Shown: positions 5,471 through 64,000 of the stretch, in pieces
How the letters are laid out: each line of letters begins with the position of its first letter
Position numbering within the stretch: position 1 is the first letter of the stretch
Virus record (IMG/VR): IMGVR_UViG_3300005512_000001
Coordinates: 128,001-192,000 of that record
Origin: a virus
Taxonomy: Duplodnaviria; Caudoviricetes
Direction: 5' to 3' (one strand)
Length of the DNA stretch: 64,000 bases
Program-made: the position numbers and the translations under genes
The notes under the pieces: generated by a model
Databases searched by the model: none
What the model saw: the letters and a program-made list of their open reading frames with translations, nothing else
What the model was told of the DNA's origin: nothing

Positions 5471-5557
5471 TTTTAATCTCCAAAATTTGTTGTTGGTTCT
5501 AATACATAACGATGGTATATACTGCAAATATAAATGTGGCACTTTAGGAGTACTGAA

Positions 5558-7103: not shown

Positions 7104-7161
7104 ATCTTAGTGTTAAATTCTTTTCATATTGCACCTTCAAATATATCATAGGAGGTGCAAT

Positions 7162-8266: not shown

Positions 8267-8318
8267 ACATTCACGCTGTTTCTTGATGTATTTATTATTA
8301 TATAGATTAGGAGACAGC

Positions 8319-18593: not shown

Positions 18594-18636
18594 ATTATAT
18601 TTACACCTGATATATTAGTAAAGGTAAATATAATAT
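18592..18636. promoter_or_regulatory. perfect 13-bp inverted repeat = divergent GTAAATATAATAT promoter-like motifs
   Basis: atattatatttac (18592-18604) and gtaaatataatat (18624-18636) each lie just upstream of a divergent start codon; resembles the T4 late promoter TATAAATA. Confidence 0.55.
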
Positions 18637-18649
18637 TTGGAGAGAAGTT

Positions 18650-24277: not shown

Positions 24278-24318
24278 AATAGGTGGCCCTTATTCTAGTC
24301 GTAAAAATATATACTTAT

Positions 24319-27576: not shown

Positions 27577-27631
27577 ATAATATTTTTTAATAGAATATTC
27601 TCATATGTGATGTTTCTGGTAAATATCATAT

Positions 27632-28405: not shown

Positions 28406-28408
28406 GTA

Positions 28409-29059: not shown

Positions 29060-30021
29060 GTATTGGCGTCTATTTGACTAGCCGAAATAATTACAATATG
29101 TTGGACCAATATTGGGCACCGAACTTGAGGCCATTTCTAACGCCAAATATGCGTGTGCTTAATATTGATGAGGATTCTAGCAAAGAAGAGAAACATAAGG
29201 GTCGGAAGATATGCAAGAAACACAATATAATATATATGGACCGAGAAGAAAAAGGCATGAGTTTTAATGCAGTGTCTGCATGTAACTTCTTCAATGCTGA
29301 CTGGCTAATTTGGTTCCAACACGACTGTTGGCCTATTACACCCGGTTTTTTTGAAAAGTTCGACGCAATGGTAGTTAGTGGTGCATTAGATAAATTTGGT
29401 GCGGTAGGTTTTAATACAGTTGCGGCTGATGTGGAAACTGATTATGACACAACTATTGTGGCAGCGAAGAAGGGAGAAAAACCACTTGCATTGATTGGCA
29501 GAAGTGGCCTTACACCATATAGATGGTACACAGGGCGTCCAATAAAGCGGAATGCAATGTTGCCGAAACCAAGAAGATGGCGCAAGCCATCGGCTGTAGA
29601 ATCAATCGCTTGGATGGCCATAGCCATTAATGTTAAGTTGTATCAGAAACATATCATACCAACAACAGATTTTCTGTTCTTCCATGCTTGGGATGATGTG
29701 TGTTATCAATTTTTGGCTAAAAACATATATAATGTAGCAATACCTAGCTTATATATAGACCATAGGCCAGGCTTGAAAGGCCAAGCTGGCTTGCCGAAGT
29801 CATCTACTAAAGTGGCTAAGAGAGGCATAGAAACTTATCATCCAGGTAAATGGACACATTTAAAAACATGGAAGAACAAATGGGGGTGGGATTGGCGTAA
29901 TCCGCAATCTTTCGCTAAAGTGGCTAAGAAGTATAGAAATACATTGCTGCATGAATTTTTTAATCATAATTTTGCTACTGGCCCATTAGCAACATTTGAT
30001 GTGCCTGGCGGCAGCATCTGA
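29056..30021 (+). CDS. GT2-like glycosyltransferase
   Basis: NIDEDS, WFQHDC, WDDVCY. Confidence 0.65.
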   Translation: MSIGVYLTSRNNYNMLDQYWAPNLRPFLTPNMRVLNIDEDSSKEEKHKGRKICKKHNIIYMDREEKGMSFNAVSACNFFNADWLIWFQHDCWPITPGFFEKFDAMVVSGALDKFGAVGFNTVAADVETDYDTTIVAAKKGEKPLALIGRSGLTPYRWYTGRPIKRNAMLPKPRRWRKPSAVESIAWMAIAINVKLYQKHIIPTTDFLFFHAWDDVCYQFLAKNIYNVAIPSLYIDHRPGLKGQAGLPKSSTKVAKRGIETYHPGKWTHLKTWKNKWGWDWRNPQSFAKVAKKYRNTLLHEFFNHNFATGPLATFDVPGGSI

Positions 30022-30032
30022 GGAGATATATC

Positions 30033-30740
30033 ATGATTAATGGTAAGAAGGTTTTAGCAATTACTTTGGCTAGGGGCGGGTCAAAGAGCATTCCACGTAA
30101 GAATATTATAGATATAAATGGCAAACCACTATTGCAATATACAACTGATGAGGTAGCCAAGAGTGCATATATAGATGATTATTATTTATCTACTGAAGAT
30201 TCTGAGATAATGTCAGTAGGACGCAATCTTGGTGTGCCTATAATTGAAAGGCCGACTGAATTAGCATCAGACACTGCTACTTCGTATGATGCAATAATGC
30301 ATGCTATAGACCATCTAGACGCGTGGGGTGTGTACGACTATATAGTAGAGGTGATGGTAACTAATCCATTGAAAACTGTTGATGATATTGATGCATGCAT
30401 CAGTAAATTGTATTCTAGTGGTGCTGATAGTGTCACATCTGTGGTAAGAATTTACGACCACCACCCATCACGTGTTAAATATATTCAACACGATAGGATG
30501 ATGAGTTTTTATCCGGAGCAGCCTGAATCTAGAAGACAAGATTTATTGCCGCCAGCATATGTGCGTAATGGATCGATTTATGCAATAACTTTGTTGGCTT
30601 TTAATAAGTATAAGTCTAGAGTAGGTGCTGATGCTGTTCCGTACATAATGCCGCAAGAAAGGACTGTTAATATTGATGAACCTGCTGATTTGAAATTAGC
30701 TGAGCTTCTAATTACTGGGTCCATGGCGTTTAGGAAATAA
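30033..30740 (+). CDS. neuA: CMP-N-acylneuraminate cytidylyltransferase
   Basis: LARGGSKSIPRKN, STED, RPTELASD, TNP, RRQDL, YVRNGSIY, NIDEPAD. Confidence 0.9.
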   Translation: MINGKKVLAITLARGGSKSIPRKNIIDINGKPLLQYTTDEVAKSAYIDDYYLSTEDSEIMSVGRNLGVPIIERPTELASDTATSYDAIMHAIDHLDAWGVYDYIVEVMVTNPLKTVDDIDACISKLYSSGADSVTSVVRIYDHHPSRVKYIQHDRMMSFYPEQPESRRQDLLPPAYVRNGSIYAITLLAFNKYKSRVGADAVPYIMPQERTVNIDEPADLKLAELLITGSMAFRK

Positions 30741-30741
30741 C

Positions 30742-31680
30742 ATGAAAATTTTATGTGTGACGCCGGTTAAACATATTGCTGGAGTTTGTGAAACTCTTAA
30801 TTCATATGGCGATGTCACATATGAAGAGGCTGCCAATAAATCTGAAGTGCAGGAATTATTACATCATAATTATGATGTCCTATATGTGAATCCCAATAAG
30901 ATGACATATAGAATAGATGATGATTTATTAGGCGATGCTTGCACTCTGCGTGCTGTTTGCACCGCATCAACCGGCACAAATCATATCGATAAGGATATGT
31001 GTAAAAGACGCGATATAAAAGTTCTATCTTTAACAACAGACTACGCTACGATAGAACGCATTAGTTCTACAGCAGAACATGCATTTTGTTTGATGATCTC
31101 ATTAGTTCGTAATTTACCAAGTGCATTCGCTGCAGCGCAACAGTTTAAGTGGGATTATACTAAATTTATAGGGCGGCAATTAAACCATCTGACTGCTGGA
31201 ATTGTTGGATATGGTAGACTTGGCAAAATGATGGCAGGATATTGTGAGGCATTTGGTATGGAGATTTTGGTCTGCGATCCATATAAAAATACTGATGGAT
31301 TCCCAAACTTAGAATTAAGTGAACTGTGTTCTAAAAGTGATGTTGTGTCTATGCATGTTCATTTAAACAATGAAACGACGGATATGATTAATCACCGTAT
31401 CATCAAAAAATGCAATGATGCATATTTGATTAACACATCACGCGGGGGTGTTGTCAATGAAGTTGATGTGGTGGATGGTCTGGAATCTGGCTACTTACAT
31501 GGGTATGCGACTGACGTAATAGGCGATGAACTAGGCAATGTCGCCCGTAGTATCTTGATTGAAAAATCTAAAGATTTAAATATCATAATAACACCACATA
31601 TCGGTGGGATGACCACGGAGGCGCAGGAAATCGCTTATAATAGTGCCGCAAATAAAATTGGAGATTTAATAGATGAGTAA
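30742..31680 (+). CDS. D-isomer-specific 2-hydroxyacid dehydrogenase
   Basis: TGTNHID, TAEHA, GIVGYGRLG, INTSRG, ATDV, ITPHIGG. Confidence 0.88.
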   Translation: MKILCVTPVKHIAGVCETLNSYGDVTYEEAANKSEVQELLHHNYDVLYVNPNKMTYRIDDDLLGDACTLRAVCTASTGTNHIDKDMCKRRDIKVLSLTTDYATIERISSTAEHAFCLMISLVRNLPSAFAAAQQFKWDYTKFIGRQLNHLTAGIVGYGRLGKMMAGYCEAFGMEILVCDPYKNTDGFPNLELSELCSKSDVVSMHVHLNNETTDMINHRIIKKCNDAYLINTSRGGVVNEVDVVDGLESGYLHGYATDVIGDELGNVARSILIEKSKDLNIIITPHIGGMTTEAQEIAYNSAANKIGDLIDE

Positions 31681-32263
31681 ACATTTGGATTATTGGCGAA
31701 AAAGGAATAAAGCTGGGTATCAGAGGCTAATTGCGACACAACCGTTTTTACATGAGAATTCAGAGGAATTGATTAAATTTCTTGATGAGAATAATATATT
31801 CTTTGATGGTATCTCGGTTTTCGAAATTGGTTGTGGGTGCGGGCGTAATTTGAAGTATATGGCAGATGCACAACCAACTGCTAGGCTTGCTGGTAATGAC
31901 CTTAGCAAAGCATTGTGTTTTAAGCATATGGCGAAAAACCTAAAAAAAGTAATAGATTTCCGCGAGATTGACACCAAATCATTATTTTCCGGCAAGCCAT
32001 ATCAATGTGATTTGCTAATATCGTCAGACCATATGATGCATTTAGACCCAGATACTGCACAGTTTGTATTGAGGGCAATATGTGATTCATGGAAACCTAA
32101 GTATTTTGTTACTAGGGAGTCAAAACGCGACCGCATCGTAAAAGGCAAGGCGATTAAATATGCGCACGATTATTCTGTGCTGAATACAACATATGATTTA
32201 GTTGCTGAGAAAGTAAGTGCACAAGATGATAGCTATAACATAAGGATATATCAAAAGAGATGA
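31673..32263 (+). CDS. class I SAM-dependent methyltransferase
   Basis: VFEIGCGCGRNL, GNDLS. Confidence 0.75.
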   Translation: MSKHLDYWRKRNKAGYQRLIATQPFLHENSEELIKFLDENNIFFDGISVFEIGCGCGRNLKYMADAQPTARLAGNDLSKALCFKHMAKNLKKVIDFREIDTKSLFSGKPYQCDLLISSDHMMHLDPDTAQFVLRAICDSWKPKYFVTRESKRDRIVKGKAIKYAHDYSVLNTTYDLVAEKVSAQDDSYNIRIYQKR

Positions 32264-33406: not shown

Positions 33407-34786
33407 ATGAAAATGCCCGTAAAAGAAATTAAAGCATGCATAAAATACACAGGCCCAACTGAGTTTGTTCACTTACATTGTCATACCGTCTATTCAACTC
33501 TAGATGGTGTGCAGACGCCGGAACAACTATTTGCTGCATGTGCTGAACGCGAATGGCCCGCTATTGCGATCACAGAGCATGGTGTGTTATCGTCTGTACC
33601 TGATAATTATTTTGCGGCGAAAGCGAATGGGGTTAAGTATATCGCAGCTTGTGAGATATACTTTAACGACTTTGAGCCATTAAGGCAAGAAATTATAGCT
33701 AATGGCGATACACTTAGTTCTATAAAACAGTCTGACCCTATGTTGCATTCTAGGATAGTTCGTAATCGGCATCTTACATTATTGGCTAAGAACATGACGG
33801 GCTTCAGTAACCTTATTAGGATGGTTACTGAAGCCCATAAATTTGGATTTTATGGCAGACCTAGAATATGGTTTGATAAACTACTTGAATATAAAGAGGG
33901 TCTGATAGTATTGTCTGGATGTTTAAATGGGCCAGTATCTCATGAGATTAGGCAAGATATATTACGGTCGGACAATGGGCGTGGTGCTATAGATTATGTG
34001 TTGAAATTTAGAGAGGCATTCGGAGATGATTATTATCTAGAATTACAAATGCCATGTCTTCCGGATGCTGATGCTAAAGATAAACCAGCGTTTTGGGTAT
34101 TAGACAAAATCTCTAAGAAGTTCAACATTCCATCTGTTTTGACTAATGATGCGCATTATTTAAACCGGGAAGATTTTCAAATCCAAAAACTAATGATGGC
34201 CATTAGTCAGAATTTGACAATAGATTCTCCTGATTTATTCCACGTCAATAGTGATGAACAATTCCTAAAAACTAGGGCTGAGCTATATGATACTTTCAAG
34301 CGGCATGGTTATGACAAACATACTGGCGATGACCGATTCGAAATCATGTGCGACAATACGTTGGCTGTGGCTGGTAAATGTGAATATTTCGAACCAGACC
34401 TAGAGCCGAAAATACCCACTGGCGACGGCGACCCCGTAAAATTGAAACAAATGGTTGTTCGAGAGCTTATGCGTCGTGGTTTGCATAAATGTGCTGATAA
34501 ATATGTTGTTGATAACCGCGAAGTTACATATTTTGAACAAGCTAAGATTGAACTCAATAGGTTCATAGAAAAGGGGTTCGCTAGTTATTTTTTAATTACC
34601 CGAGATTTGATACAGTTTAGTCTATCTAATGGATGGCCTATAGGGCCTAGAGGTAGTGTGGGTGGCTCGCTAGTATGTTATTTGCTTGGCATCACAGAAT
34701 TAGACCCATTGAAATGGGGGCTATCGTTTAATAGGTTTTTATCGCCATCGCGTGGTGGCTACATGTTAAATATAAAGGCTGAATAA
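33407..34786 (+). CDS. dnaE: DNA polymerase III alpha, N-terminal half (PHP domain to first palm segment)
   Basis: HLHCHTVYSTLDG, TEHG, HLTLLAKN, TNDAHY, GFASYF, GPRGSVGGSLVCYLLGITELDP, FNRFLSPSR; ends before PDID. Confidence 0.9.
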   Translation: MKMPVKEIKACIKYTGPTEFVHLHCHTVYSTLDGVQTPEQLFAACAEREWPAIAITEHGVLSSVPDNYFAAKANGVKYIAACEIYFNDFEPLRQEIIANGDTLSSIKQSDPMLHSRIVRNRHLTLLAKNMTGFSNLIRMVTEAHKFGFYGRPRIWFDKLLEYKEGLIVLSGCLNGPVSHEIRQDILRSDNGRGAIDYVLKFREAFGDDYYLELQMPCLPDADAKDKPAFWVLDKISKKFNIPSVLTNDAHYLNREDFQIQKLMMAISQNLTIDSPDLFHVNSDEQFLKTRAELYDTFKRHGYDKHTGDDRFEIMCDNTLAVAGKCEYFEPDLEPKIPTGDGDPVKLKQMVVRELMRRGLHKCADKYVVDNREVTYFEQAKIELNRFIEKGFASYFLITRDLIQFSLSNGWPIGPRGSVGGSLVCYLLGITELDPLKWGLSFNRFLSPSRGGYMLNIKAE

Positions 34787-35247
34787 TGTCTAAATTTACA
34801 AAATTAGCTGCTATGCTTAGGCGAGAATCAGAATATTCGCATTGGGCATATGCAAATGGGTCCGCTGTGTGGTCCAAGATTGTTAAATGGTTGGCGGAAA
34901 TTGAAAAATCATCTGAATTAGACTTTGATGAGTATCAATCAAAATCGCGGGCGACAGCCATTTACCCAAACTTAAATGACAATATTGCATATCCGGCTTT
35001 AGGATTGGCCGGTGAGTCTGGGGAAGTATGTGAGAAAGTCAAAAAGATTATTCGTGATAAAGATGGTGTTATTGATGATGATGATAGGTCAGAATTAGCG
35101 AAAGAGCTTGGGGATGTTTTATGGTACCTATCTAATATAGCATCTGAACTTAATATAAGCCTAGGTGGTGTGGCAAGAATAAATATTGATAAACTTGAAA
35201 GCAGAATGAAGCGTAATGCGCTTCATGGTGATGGTGATAATCGATGA
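34786..35247 (+). CDS. mazG: MazG-like nucleotide pyrophosphohydrolase
   Basis: LGLAGESGEVCEKVKK...KELGDVLWY...NIDKL. Confidence 0.85.
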   Translation: MSKFTKLAAMLRRESEYSHWAYANGSAVWSKIVKWLAEIEKSSELDFDEYQSKSRATAIYPNLNDNIAYPALGLAGESGEVCEKVKKIIRDKDGVIDDDDRSELAKELGDVLWYLSNIASELNISLGGVARINIDKLESRMKRNALHGDGDNR

Positions 35248-35998: not shown

Positions 35999-36401
35999 AA
36001 TTTTTGCAGCAAGTAGTAGAGACAATCAAATGGCAAGTTATGGTGCAGTGCTGCATGATGCCACTTTAGATGAGAAGTTTGAGTCATCGCAAATAATTGG
36101 TGATTATTCAAGGAACCAAGCAGATTTGATTGCTATGGTAATGGCATTGCGATGTGTTAAGACTGAATTTAAAGATGCCGAGATCATATTACATAGTCCG
36201 CCAGCATATGCCTCGCAGGTGGTTGAGAGGAACGACGATAACAAGTGGGTTTCAAACTCAAAAGCGAATATAGATATTGTGCGAGAGGTCCGGGGTTTGA
36301 TTGAAGAGTTTCCCAATTTGATGATTAAAAAATCTAGCGCCAACGAGGCGGCATTCAAAAGATGCATTGAGATTGCTAAAATATGTCTAAACAACAAGTA
36401 A
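35985..36401 (+). CDS. RNase HI-fold protein, apparently catalytically degenerate
   Basis: YGAVL, SRNQADLIAMVMAL, W...KANIDIV align with RNase HI, but the DG and TDS acidic residues are missing. Confidence 0.55.
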   Translation: MRQIEIFAASSRDNQMASYGAVLHDATLDEKFESSQIIGDYSRNQADLIAMVMALRCVKTEFKDAEIILHSPPAYASQVVERNDDNKWVSNSKANIDIVREVRGLIEEFPNLMIKKSSANEAAFKRCIEIAKICLNNK

Positions 36402-38899
36402 GTTGGAGCAAATTAAAAAAGCTCGCCACTATGCTTGCTGAGAAAAGGAAGCTTGATGCTGAGTATGTACGTAGACTCAAATTCGAGATAAAGGAAATTG
36501 AAAAACAGGGTGCCAATACATATTGGACCGAGCAATTTAATGATGGCAATAAATACGATACCAATAAAAACGGATTAGTATTGCCATGGTTAATTGGACT
36601 CACCCCTGTTGACCCCTTGAAGTCTGAACATGAGATTATTAGGTCGACCGATTTGCCAGATATTGATGTTGATTGTTTACCGCAGGCAAGAGATAAGATT
36701 AAAGCATATGCGGCTGAAAAGTATGGCAAAGAATATGTATGTAGTGTTGGCACATGGTTGACATATAAGTTTCGGTCTGCACTTCAGGATGCCGCGAGAG
36801 GTCTTGGTAGTGATTTCCGAGACGCGATGATAGTAACAAAAACGCTGCCTGACGATATAGATGACTTAAAAGATGGTGGGTATGCAGCATGCTCTAATTG
36901 CGGCAATAAGCATAAGCGTGTGCAATGTCCGTCATGTGGTAGTGTCGATACTGAAGGCATCACTATTGGCCAGATGTTGGAAGAACATGAAACTTTAAAT
37001 GCATATTATACACAGAATCCTGATGTTGTTGATAAAGCGGTGCTGCTTGTTGGTAAAATTAGGGCTATGGGCAAGCATGCAGGTGGCGTGATTATAACGA
37101 ATCGTAAGCTCATGGGCAATGTGCCGATGGGAATCAGTAAAGGGTCCGATGGCGAAGCACAATGGACTAGTATGTGGACTGAAGGCCGGAATACTCAACT
37201 ATCCAAACTTGGATATGTAAAATGGGACTTGCTTGGGTTAAAGACACTTCAATATATTCATGATGCTTGTAAGTTAATAGAACAGACACGCGGTTATAAA
37301 TTCAATATTCTACCGTGGCAGGACAATGACCCGACAGCTAATTTGGTTGGTTGGTATTTAGATGATAATGGCGAGCGGCATGATGTACAGATGGACGACC
37401 CAGATGTTTTTAAGATGATAAATGATTTAAGGGTTGAAACGTTATTCCAATTCGAGACCGACGTGCAACGCAATGTGCTGTCTAATGGTGTGAGAAATTA
37501 TTATGATTTACAGGTTTTTAATGCTATGGGCCATCCTGGGCCGATTGCATTTATACCAGAGTATGTGGAACGCAGAGATGATAATAATCAGACCTGGAAG
37601 CGCTTAGAACATCCAGATATAGCTGCGGAATTGGAAGATACGCACGGCATTATTGTTTATCAAGAGCAATTGCAGAAGATATGGCAAAAATTTGCCGGAT
37701 TTACAGCCCCCGAGGCTGAAAAAGCTAGAAAAGCTGTAGCCAAAAAATGGCGCGAACAGCTTAAGGGTATAGAGGCACATTGGAAGACTGGTGCGGCTAA
37801 AACATTAGGTGTCAAATGGGCTGATATAATGTGGGACCGCATGATTAGTTTTGGTAGGTATGCCTTCAACTTAAGCCATAGCTGTGCTTATATTTTGGTG
37901 GCGTATTGGTGTGCATGGTTAAAAGCACATTTCCCGCCAGAGTGGTGGGCAGCGGTAATGAGCGGGTGCCATCCCGATCGAATACCGAAATATATGAACA
38001 CCGCCAGGCTAGAAGGAGTGAAATTCGGTGCTATAAGTGCAGAGGAGCTTACTAAAAACTTTTCTGTGGCACCGAATTTAGAAGTAACACCAGGTCTTAC
38101 GAGCATTAAAGGAATTGGTGCTAAAGCTGCTGTGAAATTAGAAGGCCGCCATGCATTTAAAGACATAGATGAATTTATTACGGTTGTAGGCAAGGACAAA
38201 CGGGTAATGGAGCCTCTTATTAAATTAGGGGCATTTTCAAAATATCATCAAAATCTAAAAGCAACATGGATGTGGTATCAATTCAAGTATTGTACAAGCA
38301 AAGCAATAACGGCGTTAAAGAAGGAAATTAAAGAAAAATTAGTCGCACACTGGACCCCGGAAGCGATTGAAAAGCAACGGAAGCTTTTTGTAGATGGTTT
38401 TAAAGCAGAATTTCCAAAACGCAAAGTTCCAGCGAAGACGCTAAATTGGAAGCCAAAACCAGACCCCACCCGGAAGAATGTGATGGCGTTGTTTGAGGAT
38501 GACTTCTCTTTGAAAGAGCGGTTGGATTTTGAAAGGCAGTATTTAGGATATTATTGGCACTCGCCATTAGACCTCTATGATATTGATGGGTTGACAATAC
38601 AATCTGTTAAAGAAGCGATTGGCAATAGAGGTAGGATTGAAGTAGTGGTTGAGAGTCTGACTATTGGTAAGACTAAAACCCAAAAGAGGATGGGTAGGCT
38701 GAAAGTAACAGATGGGTTAGCGGACTGTACGATTATCTTATGGGCCAACCAGTTAGAAGTGCTGGGGCCATATTTAAAAGAAGGTGTCGGCATACGATTA
38801 GATGTTAAGTATGACCCATCTAGAAATAGTTTTACGTTAGGGCAACGTGATACAGTGCCGATTTTGCTGAGGCCGAGGTCTGATGAAAAATCAGAATAA
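36383..38899 (+). CDS. dnaE: DNA polymerase III alpha, C-terminal half (catalytic palm, fingers, HhH, OB fold) with Zn-ribbon insertion
   Basis: LPDIDVD, GKHAGGVII, VKWDLLGL, LFQFE, THGIIVYQEQ, YAFNLSHSCAY, WLKAHFP, IKGIG, ERQYLGYY; CSNC..CPSC insert. Confidence 0.9.
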   Translation: MSKQQVSWSKLKKLATMLAEKRKLDAEYVRRLKFEIKEIEKQGANTYWTEQFNDGNKYDTNKNGLVLPWLIGLTPVDPLKSEHEIIRSTDLPDIDVDCLPQARDKIKAYAAEKYGKEYVCSVGTWLTYKFRSALQDAARGLGSDFRDAMIVTKTLPDDIDDLKDGGYAACSNCGNKHKRVQCPSCGSVDTEGITIGQMLEEHETLNAYYTQNPDVVDKAVLLVGKIRAMGKHAGGVIITNRKLMGNVPMGISKGSDGEAQWTSMWTEGRNTQLSKLGYVKWDLLGLKTLQYIHDACKLIEQTRGYKFNILPWQDNDPTANLVGWYLDDNGERHDVQMDDPDVFKMINDLRVETLFQFETDVQRNVLSNGVRNYYDLQVFNAMGHPGPIAFIPEYVERRDDNNQTWKRLEHPDIAAELEDTHGIIVYQEQLQKIWQKFAGFTAPEAEKARKAVAKKWREQLKGIEAHWKTGAAKTLGVKWADIMWDRMISFGRYAFNLSHSCAYILVAYWCAWLKAHFPPEWWAAVMSGCHPDRIPKYMNTARLEGVKFGAISAEELTKNFSVAPNLEVTPGLTSIKGIGAKAAVKLEGRHAFKDIDEFITVVGKDKRVMEPLIKLGAFSKYHQNLKATWMWYQFKYCTSKAITALKKEIKEKLVAHWTPEAIEKQRKLFVDGFKAEFPKRKVPAKTLNWKPKPDPTRKNVMALFEDDFSLKERLDFERQYLGYYWHSPLDLYDIDGLTIQSVKEAIGNRGRIEVVVESLTIGKTKTQKRMGRLKVTDGLADCTIILWANQLEVLGPYLKEGVGIRLDVKYDPSRNSFTLGQRDTVPILLRPRSDEKSE

Positions 38900-45002: not shown

Positions 45003-45269
45003 ATGCCATATTATGAAATACGACAATTTGATAAGATTAAATTACGTACCACTAAAAATATCCGTTACTTATCGGCACCGCCCAATGAGATGCCAAGCCC
45101 GCATGGTATCTGGACTGTAGTGGCTAATATAAATAAGGATTTATTAATTTGTAAAGGCGATGCTATATGTAGAGTGCCAGTCTCAGATGTTGTTATCGCC
45201 GGACGATCAGAAATAGACCGTATACTGGAGAGAATAGATGGCAAAAAAGCAAAAGCCAAATCAGAGTAG
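45003..45269 (+). CDS. hypothetical protein
   Basis: First ORF of the recA-helicase operon. Confidence 0.6.
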   Translation: MPYYEIRQFDKIKLRTTKNIRYLSAPPNEMPSPHGIWTVVANINKDLLICKGDAICRVPVSDVVIAGRSEIDRILERIDGKKAKAKSE

Positions 45270-46929
45270 AGAATTTGACAATAAAGAAGATGTCATGAAA
45301 GCTATTGATGACAAATTTGGGAATGGTGCTATAACATTGGGAGCTGGACCGGCACTTGATGTTCCATCTATTAGTACTGGATCGGCTTCACTTGATTTGG
45401 CATTAGGGGTATGGGGAATGCCAAAAGGCCGTATCGCTGAAGTATATGGCCCAGAGAGTAGTGGTAAGACCACATTATGCTTATCAATAATCAAGGAGTG
45501 TCAGAAGCAAGGTGGCGTAGCTGCTTTTGTTGATGCTGAACATGCGTTAGACCCAACATGGGCAAGCAATATAGGTGTTGATATTGACAACCTAATGATT
45601 AGCCAGCCATCATCTGGTGAAGAGGCATTAAGTATTGTTGAGATGCTGGCCGGTTCAAAACAGGTTGATCTTATTGTGGTTGATTCAGTTGCTGCGTTGA
45701 TTCCTCAAGCTGAAATTGATGGTGAGATGGGCGATAGGCAGATTGGTGCCCAGGCTCAATTAATGAGCAAGGCTATGCGTAAGCTTGTTAGTATAACCAA
45801 TAAATCCAATTGTACAATTATATTTATCAACCAAATTAGAATGAAGATTGGTGTTATGTTCGGTTGTTTGCATGGCGATACATTGATTAATTTTGTTGAT
45901 GGTAGTGCATTGCCAATTAAAGATGTTGTTGAAAAGAAAATTGAAGGCGATGTCTGGTGTTATGACGAAGGAAGCAATAACTTTGTTGGACGCAAGATTA
46001 TTGATTGGCACAATAATGGTGATGTTCTTGATAAATGCGATTTTCTGTCTATATTGTTGAGGGGGCCAGGCAATGGCAATGGGCGTATGAATATATGTGT
46101 TACGCCAAATCATCGCGTTTTGACCGATAATGGATGGGCTGAAGCCGGTGACTTGATAATTGGTGATAGAATAATGACGAAGCAAAAGAATATTCTATCT
46201 GGTGATTCGCATTGTATGAGAAGGAAATTACCAGATGGCGTAGATGATTGTAGGGAGTGTACACTACATGTGACTGGCCAATATAGCACCACCTATGCGG
46301 AAGTGGTATCTATTAGAACGGCTAGTAGCAGACAGTTTAGAACAAAAGGGAAATATGATATAACTGTTGATGGCTGCCACAATTATTCCGCTGGTGGTCG
46401 CCATAATGGTGTGATTGTTCATAATTCGCCGGAGACCACACCAGGCGGCCGGGCATTGAAATTCTATTCTTCCATTAGACTTGATATTCGGCGTGCCGGT
46501 GCGATCAAGAAGGGCGATGATAACATTGGGAACTCAATTAAGGTAAAAGTTGTTAAAAATAAGGTTGCGCCGCCATTTAGGCAAGCTGAATTCGGACTAT
46601 ATTTTGGGAGAGATGGATATCCGAGTGGTATTGATTATGCTAGTTCGTTGGTTGATATTGCAGTTGATGTCGGCATTATCAAACAACAAGGGTCGTGGTA
46701 CAATTATGGCGAAATGAGACTTGGGAATGGCCAAGAGAATGCCTATGGCATGATTCGTAGTAATATTGATTTGATGGCAGAGATTAGCGATAAAGTGCGA
46801 GCGGCTTTTAGTCCTGATGGTGTCGATACGGATACAGAAGATACAGAAGATAAAGATATAGAAGATAAAGATATAGAAGATAAAGATATAGAAGATAAGT
46901 CTGATGTATTAGAGGATTTCGAAGAATGA
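45238..46929 (+). CDS. recA: RecA recombinase with mini-intein and acidic repeat tail
   Basis: ISTGSASLDLALG, GPESSGKTT, DAEHALDP, VDSVAAL, FINQIR.KIGVMFG|...|SPETTPGGRALKFYSS, KNKVAPPF. Confidence 0.95.
   Translation: MAKKQKPNQSREFDNKEDVMKAIDDKFGNGAITLGAGPALDVPSISTGSASLDLALGVWGMPKGRIAEVYGPESSGKTTLCLSIIKECQKQGGVAAFVDAEHALDPTWASNIGVDIDNLMISQPSSGEEALSIVEMLAGSKQVDLIVVDSVAALIPQAEIDGEMGDRQIGAQAQLMSKAMRKLVSITNKSNCTIIFINQIRMKIGVMFGCLHGDTLINFVDGSALPIKDVVEKKIEGDVWCYDEGSNNFVGRKIIDWHNNGDVLDKCDFLSILLRGPGNGNGRMNICVTPNHRVLTDNGWAEAGDLIIGDRIMTKQKNILSGDSHCMRRKLPDGVDDCRECTLHVTGQYSTTYAEVVSIRTASSRQFRTKGKYDITVDGCHNYSAGGRHNGVIVHNSPETTPGGRALKFYSSIRLDIRRAGAIKKGDDNIGNSIKVKVVKNKVAPPFRQAEFGLYFGRDGYPSGIDYASSLVDIAVDVGIIKQQGSWYNYGEMRLGNGQENAYGMIRSNIDLMAEISDKVRAAFSPDGVDTDTEDTEDKDIEDKDIEDKDIEDKSDVLEDFEE
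45865..46425 (+). mobile_element. mini-intein (187 aa) in RecA, no intact endonuclease
   Basis: FG|CLHGDT ... VTPNHRV ... KYDITV ... IVHN|SPE; no LAGLIDADG motif seen. Confidence 0.88.
46846..46898 (+). repeat. 3.5 x 15-bp tandem repeat GAAGATAAAGATATA (EDKDI)
   Basis: Directly visible at the recA 3' end. Confidence 0.9.
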
Positions 46930-51181: not shown

Positions 51182-52561
51182 ATGAAGAATAATGATGTGA
51201 TAGACGCAAAATGTAGTGTTTGCAACACCATTTCCAAAATAAAATGCGAATCATATAAGCGGACCCTAAAGCGTAGCGGTAAATATCGATGTTTATCTTG
51301 CGCAACTTCACAGGCTCTCAAAAAATCACCACGCAATACAGATAAGCTGATTGGATGGTCCAAGAGCGATGCAGGGCGAGCTGCAGCATCGCGTGTACTA
51401 AAGCAGAGGTGGGAGGATAACTACGACGAACTTTTGGGGTATATTAATGCTAATTGGAAAAACCAAGAGACTATCAACAAGCAAAAAGAAATACATGAAT
51501 TTTCCAATCGCCCTGACCTCCGTGTAAAATTTAGGAAGATATGGGCGTCAAAAGAATATCGGGAAGCTGTTAGTGATGGTGTTCGAAGATTGTGGGAAAA
51601 CCCAAAATATAGAGAAAAAATGGCTGCGTCTAGGATTAGGTATAGAGGCATTGTATCTAATATCCAGAAAATATTGTATTCATTGCTTGATGACTTGGGG
51701 ATAAAGTATTATAGAGAATATAATGGGCATAGTGATCCACAATGTAAAATCGGACCATGGACTTTTGATTGTGTAGTCCCGAGAAGCAATAAACCAGACC
51801 TATTAATAGAGTGCCAAGGCGATTATTGGCATTCTCTGTCAGAAAATATGCAGCGTGACCGGCAAAAGGCATCATATATCTCAAATAATTTGAGTGGTCG
51901 ATATGAATTGAAGTATATTTGGGAACATGAATTTTATGCGAAAGACCGAATACGAATGCTTTTGGCGTATTGGGTTGGTTTGAAGCGACATGATATTATT
52001 GACTTCAATTTTAAAGATGTTGCTATTAGAAAATGCGTAGCTAAAGATTATAAATTGTTGTTGTCTAAATACCACTATCTTGCGAATGCTGGGAGAGGAG
52101 GGATTGCTTATGGGGCATATGTGGGAGATAGACTTGCCTCTATATGTGTTTTCTCACCACTACCTAGACAGAATATTGCTAAATCACTAGGCTGTTTAGA
52201 TAAAGAGGTGCGTGATTTATCTAGATTATGTATTCACCCTAATTATCAAAAGAAAAATTTTGCTTCTTGGTTTGTGAGCCGATGTATAAAACTACTCCCA
52301 CCACAATATGCAATAGTCATCGCATATTGTGATACTACATTTGGGCATAACGGGGTTGTCTATGAAGCGTCTAATTTTAAATTAGATAAAGAAATTAGAC
52401 CCGATTATTGGTACACAAAGCCAGATGGATGGATAATGCATAAAAAGACGTTGTATGATCGTGCTGTGAAAATGGGGATTAAAGAAAGGGAATTTGCTGA
52501 ATTGCATGGATATATTAAAGTAAAGGGTGATAAGAAATATAGATATGTTTTTAAAAGATAA
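51182..52561 (+). CDS. DUF559/Vsr-like endonuclease fused to Mom/Hef-like GNAT-fold domain (copy 1)
   Basis: NUMOD-like W-x-x-P-x-Y-R helical repeats; WTFDC...IECQGDYWH...RD..K...YIWEHE; KYHYL...DLSRLC...AYCDTTFGHNGVVYEASNF...PDYWY. Confidence 0.75.
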   Translation: MKNNDVIDAKCSVCNTISKIKCESYKRTLKRSGKYRCLSCATSQALKKSPRNTDKLIGWSKSDAGRAAASRVLKQRWEDNYDELLGYINANWKNQETINKQKEIHEFSNRPDLRVKFRKIWASKEYREAVSDGVRRLWENPKYREKMAASRIRYRGIVSNIQKILYSLLDDLGIKYYREYNGHSDPQCKIGPWTFDCVVPRSNKPDLLIECQGDYWHSLSENMQRDRQKASYISNNLSGRYELKYIWEHEFYAKDRIRMLLAYWVGLKRHDIIDFNFKDVAIRKCVAKDYKLLLSKYHYLANAGRGGIAYGAYVGDRLASICVFSPLPRQNIAKSLGCLDKEVRDLSRLCIHPNYQKKNFASWFVSRCIKLLPPQYAIVIAYCDTTFGHNGVVYEASNFKLDKEIRPDYWYTKPDGWIMHKKTLYDRAVKMGIKEREFAELHGYIKVKGDKKYRYVFKR

Positions 52562-56348: not shown

Positions 56349-56874
56349 AGTCCCATCATTATTGCCGTACCCAGTGATTCGCGACCTGAATGAATGCCCG
56401 GAAATTCATGGCATATTTTGTTATATCATAGATAAATATGCTCCTGGTATATCTGCAGTTATTAAATTAGATGCTAATGATGCTGGGATTATTGTTGGAA
56501 ATTGGGATGGTGAAAATGCAAGCCCTAAAAATAAAGATGAATGGGAGAAGGTTGAGCATTTTTTAAATCATACAGCATATGATTTAATTAAAATTATGAG
56601 GCATATACGTTTACAGCAAGCAGAATTCTTCATTTCTGATAATGGTCGTCTCGTTGATGTCCAATTGTCGTTGAATAAATTTATTGGCCCTGGGATGTTA
56701 AAAGATTTATTCGCCCCGGTAGTGAATATACAAAATTCAACAGAACTAGCTGTTTTAGACCCCGATAAAATTGCTGAACTTAATAACGGTGAAAGGCGAT
56801 TTATTTTAAAGCCCAGTAAAAGCAGGCATTATATGCATGATAACAAAGTATTGCCACTCTATGCGTGTATTTGA
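56341..56874 (+). CDS. hypothetical protein
   Basis: Coupled ORF. Confidence 0.55.
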   Translation: MFEVPSLLPYPVIRDLNECPEIHGIFCYIIDKYAPGISAVIKLDANDAGIIVGNWDGENASPKNKDEWEKVEHFLNHTAYDLIKIMRHIRLQQAEFFISDNGRLVDVQLSLNKFIGPGMLKDLFAPVVNIQNSTELAVLDPDKIAELNNGERRFILKPSKSRHYMHDNKVLPLYACI

Positions 56875-57422
56875 TAGATATGTTTATTATACTTGTAGGA
56901 TATCCTGGGGCTGGTAAATCGACATTTGCTGACCTAATTAAATCTAATGATGAGTCGGTCGATATTATGAGGCCAAGCGATTGGTACCCAAATAATATCG
57001 AAGAGATGCCAAGCAAAGCACAGATGGACTATAAAATAGCGTGTTGGGAGCATGCTATAGATAAAACATCTAACTGGTTGGGATCGAATTCACCGAGTAG
57101 CGTTGTTATCTTGGACACATGTGGGGCATCTGCTAAATCACTTACAACACTATTCGCTATGGCCGCATTGCATAAGCATAAGACCATATGTATGATTGTG
57201 CATACGCCGATGTCAATATGTGCATCGAGGTCTGACCCTGGCGTGGTTCAAAAATATACTAATAAATTAAAAGTCGCAATCCCAGAGTATAAAGAAAAAT
57301 GTGATGAGATTATCGTGGTTCGTTATGACTCGCTAGATAAATGGCAAGAATTAAGCAACGAATTATGCCGAAAAATATTAGCACCACAAAACAACCAAAA
57401 GCCAGCTGGCACGAACCAATAA
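56865..57422 (+). CDS. P-loop kinase (AAA_33 / polynucleotide-kinase-like)
   Basis: ILVGYPGAGKSTFA, VILDT, TP..IC..R. Confidence 0.75.
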   Translation: MYLIDMFIILVGYPGAGKSTFADLIKSNDESVDIMRPSDWYPNNIEEMPSKAQMDYKIACWEHAIDKTSNWLGSNSPSSVVILDTCGASAKSLTTLFAMAALHKHKTICMIVHTPMSICASRSDPGVVQKYTNKLKVAIPEYKEKCDEIIVVRYDSLDKWQELSNELCRKILAPQNNQKPAGTNQ

Positions 57423-58654: not shown

Positions 58655-59299
58655 ATGTCTAAAGTATTTATTATTGGCGGCGGCCCCAGCCTGGGGGGAT
58701 TTAATTTTAAGTCCTTAGATGGACATGACTGCATAACTATCAATAAATCGTTATTTAATGTGCCAAACCCAAAATATTTTATTACTATTGACCATAGCTT
58801 TTTGAATAAAACAAAAGGTGTTAGACGACAAATAGCTGAGTCGAGTGCTAATTCATTTTTTGTTTCGAACTATGCTGGTGGGACTCTAAAGGATGATGAT
58901 GGCAGGATATTATGCACGAAGACCAAGCGACATTATAATCTGGCCGGGTTCGATGTAATTATCAAAAGCAAGAAGCATGCTGGAATTGGATTCGATTGGG
59001 GCGATTTTAGGAATGGCAATTGTAGCGGTTATTGTGCGATGCAATTAGCGGTATTATTGAGATATGATGAAATTTATATGCTTGGGATAGATTTAGCAAC
59101 TAGCGGCAATAAAACGCATTATCACAATGGTTATGGCACAAGACTTGACAAAATGGTGTCGTCATTGGACGGATATTTTAAATATTTTAGGGATGGTGTT
59201 AAAGTAGCTCTGAACAACAATATTAAGATATTTTCTTGTTCTAGCATAAGCCGGTTAAATGGGATTATACCATTTGTTGATTCTTCAACGGTTTTATAA
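58655..59299 (+). CDS. DUF115/Maf-like (sialyltransferase-related) protein
   Basis: IIGGGPSL, ITIN, NCSGYCAMQLA..LRYDEIYMLGIDL, HYH. Confidence 0.7.
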   Translation: MSKVFIIGGGPSLGGFNFKSLDGHDCITINKSLFNVPNPKYFITIDHSFLNKTKGVRRQIAESSANSFFVSNYAGGTLKDDDGRILCTKTKRHYNLAGFDVIIKSKKHAGIGFDWGDFRNGNCSGYCAMQLAVLLRYDEIYMLGIDLATSGNKTHYHNGYGTRLDKMVSSLDGYFKYFRDGVKVALNNNIKIFSCSSISRLNGIIPFVDSSTVL

Positions 59300-60638
59300 A
59301 GTCATTGAAGAACTCATCTACTTGTTCAACTGCACGGCCCACTAAGATGTCGTTTTGATATTCGCTAATGTCGATGTCTTTTAGCTCTTTCATCGCCGAG
59401 AGTTCCTTTATCAATTCATCGCCAGAATAATTCAATGAGCATTGTCGTAGCTTCTCATGCAATTCTTGTCGGTCAGCTCCACGTTTGACGGCAGCCATTA
59501 GAATTTTTTCGACAGTCATGAGTGCGATTTCGGTGTTGAGATTGTCAGCGATGGCTGTGTGATTTACTACCAGACCACCAAATATTTTTATCATTGTGTT
59601 CAATATGCCATCGACCGATAAGAAGATTTCTGGCAATACTAATCTGCGGGCACTAGAATCATCTAGTGAGCGTTCCAACCATTGTTCTGATGCTGTAATT
59701 AAAGCGGTTGTTGATAACCCAATGGCAAATTTTGCAATACCGCATACTCGTTCGCAATATAGCGGGTTCTTTTTGTATGGCATTGCAGATGAACCAACTT
59801 GTTTAGCTCCAAATCCTTCGGCTAATTCTTTCTTACCGGCTAACAGCCGTATGTCTGTGGCTATTTTTTGACATACTGCGGCCAGTGACGACATCAGACA
59901 TACTAAAATAGAATCGTCTATTCTTGGGTAGACTTGACCAGTAACAGCATACTTGTTTTGCCCAAATCCCATCATATTGCAAATTAGAGTATCCAGCGAC
60001 TTGACTTTGTCGTGATTGCCGTCGAATAATTCCAAATATGATGCTTGCGTTCCTGTCGCCCCTTTTACTCCGCGTGCCTTTAGATTAAGATATTTATGAT
60101 TAATCTCAGACAGAACTAGATATAGGTCATATGCCCACAGCGAGGCTCGTTTGCCAACTGTTGTTGGTTGTGCTGGTTGGAAATGTGTTAGCCCCAGTGT
60201 CGCTACTGACTTATGGTTGTTGGCAAATTCGCCAATATTTACAATTAATGATTTTAATTTTGTGATGATTAGAGACAACGATGTTTTAATTCGCATTGAA
60301 TCAGCATTGTCTACCACGAATTGGCTCGTGGCACCTAGATGGATGATTCCACGCGCAGATGGTGCTTGGTCGCCAAACGCCTTGATATGTGCCATTACAT
60401 CATGATGTAATTCTTTTTCATACTCTTCTGCACGCCCCATATCAGCATCTTTCAGAGCAGACTCTAGTTCATTTAATTGTTTGTTTGTAATAGATAACCC
60501 CAATTGCGATTGTGCGCGTGCTAAATTGCACCACAACTCTCTCCATAAATTGAATTTATATTCATCGCTCCATATATGTGCCATTTCTGGTGATGCACTT
60601 CTGCCGACTAGTGGTGACTGATATATGCTCATAGACAT
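59265..60638 (-). CDS. purB: adenylosuccinate lyase
   Basis: YQSPL, HDVMAH, IIHLGATSQFV.DN, THFQPAQPTTVGKR, GVKGATGTQAS, SSAMPYKKNP, ERSLDDS. Confidence 0.95.
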   Translation of the reverse strand: MSMSIYQSPLVGRSASPEMAHIWSDEYKFNLWRELWCNLARAQSQLGLSITNKQLNELESALKDADMGRAEEYEKELHHDVMAHIKAFGDQAPSARGIIHLGATSQFVVDNADSMRIKTSLSLIITKLKSLIVNIGEFANNHKSVATLGLTHFQPAQPTTVGKRASLWAYDLYLVLSEINHKYLNLKARGVKGATGTQASYLELFDGNHDKVKSLDTLICNMMGFGQNKYAVTGQVYPRIDDSILVCLMSSLAAVCQKIATDIRLLAGKKELAEGFGAKQVGSSAMPYKKNPLYCERVCGIAKFAIGLSTTALITASEQWLERSLDDSSARRLVLPEIFLSVDGILNTMIKIFGGLVVNHTAIADNLNTEIALMTVEKILMAAVKRGADRQELHEKLRQCSLNYSGDELIKELSAMKELKDIDISEYQNDILVGRAVEQVDEFFNDFIKPLKNQQMV

Positions 60639-60657
60639 CAAATACACTATACTTGTT

Positions 60658-62163
60658 TTATAAGTGCAGGATAAATCGTTTCTTTTGAGACCCATGCACT
60701 TTTGTATATCCGAATTTTTCGGCGAATTCTGATTCTTTCATCCCCATTTTAATAGCGCGATTATATAAAGTTTTTTTATGCATGACCCATTTATCTTGAG
60801 AGACATACCAATAGCTAGGCGGGATTGTTTTATCTAGTTTAAAGTTGCATGCTAGATACAACGACCCCGTGTGGTTAAATGTAGTATCAGTATATGCGAT
60901 AATGCATTTGTATTTCTTGGGCAATTTGTTTATGCATTTAGATATTAACCATGACCCAAAATTTTTCTTCTGGTATTTGGGGTGTATGCAGAATCTTGAC
61001 AATTCTCTTACGCACGACTTGTTATAATTAGCGATTTGGATGTTTTGTCTAACCAATGGCGAGAAAATGCATATAGCAATTAATTTGTTCTCCAAATATG
61101 CCCCGTAAGCGATTCCACCACGTCCTGCGGTCGCTAGATAGTGGTATTTTGCAAGTAGTGGTGTGTATTCGTTCGATTTTGATTTATGTATTGCAACATC
61201 ATCGAAACTAAAGCTTATAAGTTTGGTATTGCTTATATTGAGCCAATATTCTATAGTATTAATAATCTTGTTGTGTTGGTAAAATTCGTGTTCCCATAAG
61301 TATTTAAGCTCATATTCGGATGCCAAATAATTTTTCACATATTCTTGCTTTCTGATGTCTCTTAATTTCGTCTTTGTATTATTGTGCCAATAATCGCCTT
61401 GGCATTCAATTAGTAATGTTTTGCTATTGGGTCTTGGTATAACACAATCGAATGACCATGGCCCTATTCTACATTGTGGGTCATCAGGCTTGTCATTATA
61501 TTCTCTGAAGTATGTTATGTTTAAATCATCTAATATTGAATATAACATACTTTGAATATTGGATACTTTTGGTGTATTGGCGAGCCTAATAGCTTGTTTT
61601 TCTAAATATTCAGTTGTTTTATGCGACTTTATTTGTTTCTCTATGAATCCTGGTTTTCTTATAGCTTTGTAATACTTGCTTCTGTGTTCTGGTGACTTCC
61701 ATAAATGGTTTGATATGCTCCTTAACTTTTCTATTTGCGATGCATTAATTGTGGCCATTTTTTGTTTGAATTCTGGGTCTAGCCATAACTTCCGCAATGA
61801 TTCGGTTATTTTTTGTCCGAATTCTGGGTCTTGCCACAATTTTTTGGATTTTTCGCTTATTTTCTTTTTAGTTGCAGGCGAGTGTGGTTGTTTATTTTTT
61901 GGCACTTTTTTATTGGCCCTATAAGATTGGTCCTGCCATACCCTCTTCATGTTGTCAGATTGCTTTGTTTTGTATTTGTCGCTTTTATTAACACAGGCCC
62001 TACATACATAAATTGGGTTCTTTTTGCGCAGCAATTTATATCCTTTATAATTCTGTTGTGTAATTTTATTGCATTTAGAGCATTGAATAATAACACTGTC
62101 TTTATTTTTTGCAGTTTCCTTTGTGATTCCATATTTTTTCTTGGTTTTGTCCCACAATATCAT
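60658..62163 (-). CDS. DUF559/Vsr-like endonuclease fused to Mom/Hef-like GNAT-fold domain (copy 2)
   Basis: NUMOD3-like HSPATKKKISE, WQDPEF repeats; WSFDC..IECQGDYWH; KYHYL..ELSRFC..AYTDTTFNHTGSLYLACNF. Confidence 0.75.
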   Translation of the reverse strand: MILWDKTKKKYGITKETAKNKDSVIIQCSKCNKITQQNYKGYKLLRKKNPIYVCRACVNKSDKYKTKQSDNMKRVWQDQSYRANKKVPKNKQPHSPATKKKISEKSKKLWQDPEFGQKITESLRKLWLDPEFKQKMATINASQIEKLRSISNHLWKSPEHRSKYYKAIRKPGFIEKQIKSHKTTEYLEKQAIRLANTPKVSNIQSMLYSILDDLNITYFREYNDKPDDPQCRIGPWSFDCVIPRPNSKTLLIECQGDYWHNNTKTKLRDIRKQEYVKNYLASEYELKYLWEHEFYQHNKIINTIEYWLNISNTKLISFSFDDVAIHKSKSNEYTPLLAKYHYLATAGRGGIAYGAYLENKLIAICIFSPLVRQNIQIANYNKSCVRELSRFCIHPKYQKKNFGSWLISKCINKLPKKYKCIIAYTDTTFNHTGSLYLACNFKLDKTIPPSYWYVSQDKWVMHKKTLYNRAIKMGMKESEFAEKFGYTKVHGSQKKRFILHL

Positions 62164-62265: not shown

Positions 62266-62673
62266 ATGGCAAGTCAGCCACTAAACACACAGATTCAAGT
62301 TTTCCGCAGGGTTAGGGCGCAACGCGAACCGCAGCGTCATGACTCAATCAAGAACATCACGGGCAAGCTTCGTCGGCTAATCTTAATTGCGCCGGGTGAA
62401 GAAGTAAGGACAGCAGTCGTATCGCGTGATACTAGCGTTACCGACTTCTCGACCTACATGGGAGAGGCAAGCGCAGTGGCACAAAGAGGTCATCCAATTG
62501 TTGTTGGGGTCCAGGCGGTCAAGGACTTCAGCGTGGTCCAGCAAATTTCTGGCGTCGATTTCCCAGTCGAAATCGGTGGCGACAAATTTGTTCAGGAAAC
62601 TGCAGCTACCGTTGGTGGCGACGTACATCAGGACGCTCGCGACACTACCGGTGGTACAACCAACAGGCTGTAA
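62266..62673 (+). CDS. hypothetical, probably highly expressed (structural) protein
   Basis: AAGGAG RBS, distinct C-ending codon bias, own terminator. Confidence 0.65.
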   Translation: MASQPLNTQIQVFRRVRAQREPQRHDSIKNITGKLRRLILIAPGEEVRTAVVSRDTSVTDFSTYMGEASAVAQRGHPIVVGVQAVKDFSVVQQISGVDFPVEIGGDKFVQETAATVGGDVHQDARDTTGGTTNRL

Positions 62674-62762: not shown

Positions 62763-64000
62763 ATGGCTAATTTAGAGCGGAAAATTTGGCGTAATTCTGA
62801 ATGGTTATATGACCATTATTATAATAAAAAATTATCATATTCGCAGATGTCAAATATTGTTGGGGTTTCGAAAAGAGCTATGATTTTCGCATGTAAACAA
62901 TTTGGGATTAAATCTAGAAGTACATCAGAATCGTTATCTGCACCTATGCCTACCCGAAAAGATTTAGAGAAGCTATATTGTACTCAACAATTAAGCCAAT
63001 CCCAAATATCTAAAATTTATGGGGTTTCACAATCAGTAGTCCATAAATGGATGAAAAAATATGGCATTAAAAGTAGAGACCATAAAAATGCTACCCAGAT
63101 AAGATTGGGATATGGTAAGAAACCATTATGCGAATGGGCAAATTCGCAATGGTTGATAGAACAATATGAAAGTAAATCTGTATCGGAGATAGCATCGGGT
63201 GTTGGCTGGTCAACTACTTTTGTGCATGACACGATGGCGGAGCTTGGCCTTGAAATGAGGTCCAACTCTGAAGCCATGCTGATGCAATCTAATAAGATAT
63301 CAAAGAGGATGCGTGATAAATGGTGTGACCCTGAATATCGCAAATTTATGCTCGCTAAAATGGCAGCATATCCGAAAGTATCTTCATTGCAGACAAAATT
63401 ATATGGCATATTAGATGAGATGGGAATTGAATACTATAGAGAACATAATGATAAAGAAGACGATGTGCAATGTGTAATTGGGTATTGGCATTTTGATTGT
63501 GTGATTCCGAAGCATGATGCTAAAAATCTTATAATTGAATGTAATGGTGACTATTGGCATTCGCTGCCAGAAGTAGTGGCAAATGACCGCAGAAAATCGA
63601 ATTATATTTATAAATACCAGAATGATGCTTATGACTTAAAATATTTATGGGAACATGATTTCGCTAATATAGATAGAGTGAAACAATTAATTAGATATTG
63701 GGTTGGATTGCATAAACTAGATGTTATTAAGTTCCAATTTAATATGGTAAATATACGTCAAATTAACTATGTTGAGGCTATTAAACTGCTTGGTGCCTAT
63801 CACTATATAGGCACAGCCAGAAAAAATTCCAAAAATTATGGTGCATTCCTTGGAGATGAATTGATTGCAGTTGGGTCGTTTGGTCCAATCACTAGAAAAC
63901 AATCAGCAGATAGACTTGAATTAAAATATGACGAATTAATAGAATATACCAGACTATGTATTCACCCAAGCTATCAGAAGAAGAACTTTGCGACCTGGTT
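62763..64000 (+). CDS. endonuclease-Mom/Hef-like GNAT fusion (copy 3), truncated by the window end; absent from the ORF track
   Basis: My translation from ATG 62763: MANLERKIWRNSEWLY.., HTH-like repeats, WCDPEYR, WHFDCVIP, IECNGDYWHS, YLWEHD, AYHYIG, EYTRLCIHPSYQKKNFATW. Confidence 0.75.
   Translation, partial: MANLERKIWRNSEWLYDHYYNKKLSYSQMSNIVGVSKRAMIFACKQFGIKSRSTSESLSAPMPTRKDLEKLYCTQQLSQSQISKIYGVSQSVVHKWMKKYGIKSRDHKNATQIRLGYGKKPLCEWANSQWLIEQYESKSVSEIASGVGWSTTFVHDTMAELGLEMRSNSEAMLMQSNKISKRMRDKWCDPEYRKFMLAKMAAYPKVSSLQTKLYGILDEMGIEYYREHNDKEDDVQCVIGYWHFDCVIPKHDAKNLIIECNGDYWHSLPEVVANDRRKSNYIYKYQNDAYDLKYLWEHDFANIDRVKQLIRYWVGLHKLDVIKFQFNMVNIRQINYVEAIKLLGAYHYIGTARKNSKNYGAFLGDELIAVGSFGPITRKQSADRLELKYDELIEYTRLCIHPSYQKKNFATW

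Follow-up and report, generated by a model that had tools for sequence, protein, structure and literature searches.

Among the closest described systems are cyanophage S-2L, Vibrio phage phiVC8 and Acinetobacter phage SH-Ab 15497, in which the phage enzyme PurZ makes succino-aminodeoxyadenylate (dSMP). The searchable papers assign the next step, cleavage of dSMP to the 2-aminoadenine (Z) nucleotide 2-aminodeoxyadenosine monophosphate (dZMP), to host enzymes, in agreement with a first-pass annotation of the DNA described here, which stated that model Z phages use host PurB. A PurB encoded by the phage is discussed nowhere in this literature. The pairing of PurB with PurZ is already visible in GenBank annotation, for Gordonia phage Ghobes since 2016 and for the genus Hiyaavirus. 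The present analysis concerns such a gene, purB, at positions 59265-60638 of a stretch of 64,000 nucleotides (the window), which comprises bases 128001-192000 of a 341,434-bp IMG/VR virus record (IMGVR_UViG_3300005512_000001) with direct terminal repeats.

It is likely that this PurB is linked to Z synthesis by way of PurZ, and the phage probably carries out the second step of Z synthesis with an enzyme of its own. What is new is a full-length ADSL-type PurB that is stably inherited, together with PurZ, in a lineage of DnaE-type jumbo phages; the kind of system itself is already known. In the proposed mechanism, PurB would have been passed down vertically within a single sub-lineage of T4-like jumbo phages that replicate with DnaE, and every one of these phages would also carry a PurZ-type synthetase. 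PurZ would make dSMP and the phage PurB would cleave it to dZMP, adding lyase capacity during infection so that the step is not left wholly to host PurB, which the phage enzyme would supplement rather than replace. We infer that this branch of PurZ makes dSMP, that dSMP is the physiological substrate of PurB and that Z is present in the phage DNA. The two genes on which this reading turns are the following.

59265-60638, minus strand: purB, adenylosuccinate lyase of the eukaryote/Planctomycetes-Verrucomicrobia-Chlamydiae "ADSL" type, 457 aa, recognised by TIGR00928, by alignment with human ADSL and by its place in a phage-only clade.
8256-9569, plus strand: homolog of the PurZ-type succino-aminodeoxyadenylate synthase, presumed upstream partner of PurB, recognised by NF038379, by its solved relatives and by a GSSGKG P-loop.

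The lyase gene lies in an uninterrupted minus-strand open reading frame (ORF) of 476 aa (59265-60695), which is open upstream of the ATG at 60638 as far as 60695. The ATG at 60638, the second in frame, gives the 457-aa protein and is the preferred start, because it is that of the database gene call (P0002), because all homologs as well as human ADSL start aligning with the 476-aa ORF at residues 22-25, and because the stop of the gene upstream (TAA, 60658-60660) lies 19 nt ahead of it. The first-pass annotation had called an intact adenylosuccinate lyase here, and this is borne out: the product scores 373.2 bits on NCBIfam TIGR00928 (purB, equivalog), whose cut-off is 326.2, with model positions 3-435 of 436 covered (a result repeated on the genome), and it has the catalytic His and Ser loop. 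H171 (in LTHFQPAQ) aligns with human H159 and S302 (in GSSAMPYKKNP) with human S289, which we take to be the catalytic His and Ser of human ADSL, with the GSSxMPxKxNP loop as signature. Both residues, along with the other conserved positions checked, are invariant across the clade relatives. The closest solved relatives are the human ADSL structures 5NX8 and 2J91 (about 396 bits), whereas Bacillus/Thermotoga-type lyases reach merely 130-160 bits. A Pfam scan gave Lyase_1 together with ADSL_C (PF10397), the latter at 29.9 bits, slightly below the cut-off of 32.7; the precomputed Pfam assignment of P0002 includes PF10397, and the alignment with human ADSL extends through residue 470. The protein also matches an unannotated PHROGs family, phrog_1703, with 332 bits. 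The purB gene is thus intact, and its product looks like a catalytically competent adenylosuccinate lyase. A promoter and terminator scan around purB found nothing better than shuffled sequence.

The presumed partner lies 49.7 kb from purB and on the opposite strand, in keeping with the separation of about 50 kb in the first-pass annotation. Its top NCBIfam match is PurZ (NF038379), with 140.6 bits and under the cut-off of 300; its best solved relatives are phiVC8 PurZ (6FM1) and S-2L PurZ (7ODX), which come ahead of archaeal PurA. The P-loop GSSGKG at residues 43-48 places a Ser at the position of Asp13, the catalytic Asp of PurA, and this replacement has been used as a criterion for calling PurZ (bioRxiv 10.1101/2025.10.22.683976). 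The Ser is invariant in 22 members of the PurZ clade and is found in 74 of the 76 related loci matched by a motif search, while 14 further loci fell outside the motif pattern. The claim that the window contains no other purine-synthesis gene also held, none being found in Pfam scans of essentially all its larger ORFs; these scans returned a ThyA-like gene and a class II ribonucleotide reductase near purZ, a sugar-biosynthesis island, a replication module and mobile nuclease genes. Neither a second PurA-family gene nor a synthase (PurC) for succinylaminoimidazole carboxamide ribotide (SAICAR) was found in the whole 341-kb genome. As the genome has no PurA or PurC as an alternative partner, the pairing of PurB with PurZ is favoured.

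Relatives of PurB and PurZ were found with alignment-based scans; single-protein IMG/VR scans for close relatives of PurB, PurZ and DnaE found none, and the metagenome scans returned mainly short or bacterial contigs. The nearest PurB homologs (57-63% identical) are on phage contigs, and the next, at about 50%, are the PurBs of Planctomycetota and Chlamydiae. In a maximum-likelihood tree the window PurB falls inside a phage-only clade of 15 rows (Shimodaira-Hasegawa-like approximate likelihood ratio test, SH-aLRT, 98), with P0016 and P0017 as its sister pair. P0016 is located on a phage contig, NCBI FUIF01015115.1 (104,859 bp), which carries this PurB at 39.9-41.2 kb and a PurZ (P0290, 67% identical to that of the window, GSSGKG) at about 78-79 kb. 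The two genes differ in strand, as they do in the window, and each lies in a neighbourhood syntenic with that of its window counterpart. For a second relative, PurB P0005 and PurZ P0284 (68% identical) each have a longest contig of 215,405 bp and share the samples ERZ27313164 and SRR5581337; from these matches, the two are almost certainly of one genome. Thus, in the closest lineage PurB does travel with PurZ wherever this is visible, as proven on one contig and inferred for a second relative.

The gene also keeps its place. Four relatives have purB at the same site, with genes for gp32, a 5'-3' exonuclease, a P-loop kinase and proteins of 300 and 214 aa on one flank and neck, gp15 and sheath genes on the other. 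Their PurBs are 54-62% identical to that of the window, and the flanking genes range from 36 to 84%. Since the site is fixed and the identity lies within the range of the flanking genes, purB is considered resident and vertically inherited. Invariant alignment columns number more than 100, every catalytic residue among them, and stops and frameshifts are absent.

More widely, 12 IMG/VR records with a PurB homolog were compared: six have a Ser-type PurZ, two have a gene of Asp type or of His type (one each), and the four with no PurA/PurZ-type gene are fragments (completeness <=20%). As PurZ relatives are rare in IMG/VR, far less than one record with both genes would be expected by chance. The purB gene adjoins purZ in G012, a complete record of 40.8 kb, and in a group of 150-kb myoviruses. 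As the PurB of these myoviruses carries an E. coli-like ASL_C domain in place of ADSL_C, it represents a separate recruitment; on domain type (ADSL_C versus ASL_C), two independent recruitments of PurB are solid. Separate uptake of long-type PurBs by different PurZ phages was considered and is not claimed: the maximum-likelihood tree separates these PurBs, but a single clade is not rejected by the approximately unbiased test (p = 0.21-0.22). Among cultured phages, Ghobes and Streptomyces phage Galactica each have a PurZ above the NF038379 cut-off and an annotated PurB-like gene, and the bona fide PurB-like genes checked in a curated phage collection were all in PurZ phages. Certain matches were discarded. 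The near-top PurB match "UNVERIFIED Bacteriophage sp." (MT835488.1) is a bacterial chromosome with purC, purF, enolase and RNase R; similar top matches were likewise unannotated UNVERIFIED records; and the purB of "Microcystis phage MaAM05" (MW495066.1) is flanked by the cellular genes mtaB and glgX. MT835488.1 and the purB region of MaAM05 look like contamination of the phage collection.

Two further genes of the window bear on the remaining steps of Z synthesis.

34786-35247, plus strand: MazG-like nucleotide pyrophosphohydrolase, between the halves of a split DnaE; PF03819 44 bits, phrog_229 132 bits.
56865-57422, plus strand: conserved P-loop kinase (AAA_18/AAA_33) near purB; Pfam AAA_18 30 bits, AAA_33 28 bits.

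The first-pass annotation correctly placed a MazG-domain ORF at 34786-35247, but the MazZ-like part in dGTP to dGMP supply that it proposed for this protein found no support. The protein is of the generic phrog_229 type, a general phage family; its identity to the MazG proteins of ordinary phages of Mycobacterium, Gordonia and Streptomyces is about 50%, a pairwise comparison with S-2L MazZ is not significant (E-value 0.07), and no counterpart was detected in G013, a distant relative. Supply of dGMP by this MazG is possible but unsupported. The surrounding DnaE (PolIII alpha) is split into two genes at 33407-34786 and 36383-38899, separated by about 1.6 kb in which MazG and three small ORFs lie; the DnaE of G013 is also split, by a different insert.

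Searches of the 341-kb genome for guanylate kinase, HD_3/PF13023 (DatZ) and the NDT family (PF05014) gave no match, and neither did one for PF04447 (DUF550-type MazZ), a weak search in which the control genomes were unmatched too. Outside the window, the genome encodes a dUTPase (G000:278065-278385) and a nucleoside diphosphate kinase (NDK; G000:316852-317250). In PurZ0 phages, the dUTPase homolog DutZ hydrolyses dATP and dGTP. For the conversion of dZMP to dZDP and for the removal of dATP, no phage gene is recognisable here by sequence. The P-loop kinase at 56865-57422 is syntenic in all four relatives examined; its matches to solved structures are weak, its AlphaFold2 model has a predicted local distance difference test (pLDDT) score of 74, and Foldseek template modelling (TM) scores stay below 0.5. 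Its candidacy as the missing dZMP kinase is speculative.

The remaining feature is context to purB and stands outside the pathway.

60658-62163, minus strand: nuclease and Mom-like GNAT fusion gene, directly upstream of purB; PF25680 Mom and REase_MTES_1575.

In the relatives, purB is instead preceded divergently by a homolog of the window gene at 62266-62673, and 60658-62163 is therefore regarded as an insertion specific to this genome. Fusions of a REase_MTES_1575/Vsr-like nuclease with a Mom-family GNAT occur three times, at 51182-52561 (plus strand), 60658-62163 (minus strand) and 62763-64000+ (plus strand). They behave like mobile insertions, since in four relatives the site upstream of purB lacks this gene.

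Several points weigh against a role of PurB in Z synthesis. No phage lyase is required for it, as the searchable papers give the step to host PurB. The PurZ branch is divergent and scores below the NCBIfam PurZ cut-off, so that its chemistry is a reading of sequence. A distance of 50 kb separates purB from purZ, and the two genes differ in strand and in module. PurB was not found in three PurZ-bearing relatives, namely G013 (complete, 320 kb), G017 (91% complete) and G020, whose contig spans PurZ to gp15; G013 has terminal repeats, a 57% identical PurZ and a replication module syntenic with the window. Thus, the idea that purB and purZ occur together in relatives stood in part, for FUIF01015115.1, which has both, and almost certainly for the second relative, and failed for these three, from which it follows that PurB is dispensable, an accessory outside the core. 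Furthermore, giant-virus metagenome-assembled genomes (whose PurB forms another clade) and G009, where purB stands beside an Asp-type PurA-like gene (P-loop GDSGKG), have PurB and no Ser-type PurZ, which argues for a PurZ-independent, general purine role in some viruses. It is therefore conceivable, though we think it unlikely, that the window PurB is a generic auxiliary metabolic gene that converts SAICAR to aminoimidazole carboxamide ribotide (AICAR) and adenylosuccinate to AMP for ATP and dATP, independently of PurZ, the more so as it resembles an ordinary bifunctional ADSL with canonical residues. Such a PurB would, however, have no PurA, PurC or other purine gene to pair with in this genome, and a boost of AMP would be of little gain to a phage thought to deplete dATP. 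Both clade relatives with a traceable PurZ region have PurZ, the second almost certainly so, and once the bacterial contaminant MT835488.1 is set apart, the curated collection likewise ties bona fide PurB-like genes to PurZ phages.

The first-pass annotation went further than a link between PurB and PurZ, and proposed a PurB specialised for dSMP which, with PurZ and MazG, would make dZMP synthesis host-independent; this we hold to be quite improbable. In its favour are the NDK encoded in the genome, the PurZ-PurB-MazG cluster present in the 150-kb myovirus clade, and G027, in which a MazG 50% identical to that of the window lies 2.9 kb from PurZ. There are also two substitutions private to the phage clade: where human ADSL has Tyr21 the clade has Gly, Ser or Thr, against Tyr or Asn in the PurBs of cells and of other viruses, and the residue equivalent to human Arg309 is Lys in 15 of 15 members. 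A self-contained pathway is not what the genome presents, since guanylate kinase, DatZ, the DUF550 and NDT families and any MazZ-type gene went undetected, MazG is generic and missing from G013, PurZ-bearing relatives lack PurB, and host PurB suffices for the model Z phages. Other PurZ-linked PurBs retain Tyr at the Tyr21 position, and the change is therefore unnecessary for handling dSMP; a literature search on the role of human ADSL Tyr21 gave nothing useful. Host independence aside, it is improbable that this phage-only clade of ADSL was retuned to dSMP, a deoxy substrate with a 2-amino group, through changes that include the Tyr21- and Arg309-equivalent substitutions. The converse view, that purB has no role and is either a passenger of recent acquisition or a gene in decay, could appeal to its position at a module boundary, its flanking mobile nuclease/Mom-like genes and a strand opposite to that of most neighbours. 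This is highly improbable, as the site is kept in at least four diverged relatives, more than 100 columns are invariant with stops and frameshifts absent, and it is the upstream mobile gene that was inserted, in this genome specifically. A PurB that supplements the host at the dSMP step thus remains the preferred reading.

Certain observations on the neighbourhoods of the two genes stand on their own. Upstream of purZ, three genes (199, 241 and 296 aa; 5807-8266) have no Pfam match and are kept beside PurZ in FUIF01015115.1, two of them also in a second relative and in G013. Beyond them, 4514-5668 (minus strand) encodes a 384-aa protein of the thymidylate synthase family with a partial match to the ThyA profile (48.7 bits), which could be a pyrimidine-modifying paralog instead of ThyA. 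The class II ribonucleotide reductase (10978-14373, minus strand) and RecA (45238-46929, plus strand) are interrupted by inteins/LAGLIDADG inserts, and such inserts also occur in many metagenomic PurZ homologs of 750-820 aa (proteins P0123 and P0126-P0131). At purB, the conserved 214-aa gene convergent with it (58655-59299) is sialyltransferase/MptE-like. It belongs with a sugar island (16954-32263 and 58655-59299) of volactin, capsule-synthesis and glycosyltransferase genes, NeuB, FkbM methyltransferases, a CMP-sugar cytidylyltransferase and a 2-hydroxyacid dehydrogenase; together, these genes hint at a phage nonulosonic-acid glycosylation.

The repeated carriage of PurB by PurZ phages, in at least two domain types, suggests that the lyase step may be a bottleneck, or a point of host dependence, during infection. 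The enzyme described here is an expressible candidate for acting on dSMP and could improve the engineered production of Z-DNA. Further, it lends weight to the view that the helper genes used for Z-DNA by large DnaE-type phages differ from those of the known small phages. If the retuning of the clade were true, its carriers could make dZMP where host PurB is absent, repressed or poor on dSMP, and the Z-DNA pathway would have in this lyase its first dedicated "PurB-Z".

When placed beside the known systems, the locus shares with S-2L, phiVC8 and SH-Ab 15497 the proposed reaction, cleavage of PurZ-made dSMP to dZMP, as well as the diagnostic Ser of PurZ, and differs from them in that the lyase is encoded by the phage instead of being provided by the host. 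The Z-clusters of those phages also contain DatZ and MazZ, neither of which is found here, and replication in this genome relies on a split DnaE instead of DpoZ or PrimPol. In Ghobes (gp36, KX557278) and Galactica (gp75, MT316461, genus Hiyaavirus) the lyase is likewise phage-encoded and of the same superfamily, being annotated as "PurB-like adenylosuccinate lyase". Their PurZs, at 347 and 365 bits, are above the NF038379 cut-off and that of the window is below it, while their lyases are shorter or divergent (377 and 461 aa, Lyase_1 only, 28-36% identical over part of the length). Both are small actinobacterial siphoviruses, in contrast to the 341-kb myovirus-like phage with its full-length ADSL-type enzyme.

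The uncultured myoviruses of about 150 kb (IMG/VR G043, G044, G047, G049 and G050) have the same three families, PurZ, PurB and MazG, and their Ser-type PurZ is of the same broad clade, at 34-36% identity. In them the three genes lie within about 6 kb and PurB is of the ASL_C type, whereas in the window they are spread over 50 kb with an ADSL_C PurB. Among cellular enzymes, human ADSL (5NX8, 2J91) and the PurBs of Planctomycetota and Chlamydiae are about 45-50% identical over the full length and share the catalytic His and the Ser loop, and probably the C-terminal domain as well; the phage clade is set apart from them as a branch of its own, in which the residues equivalent to Tyr21 and Arg309 are replaced.

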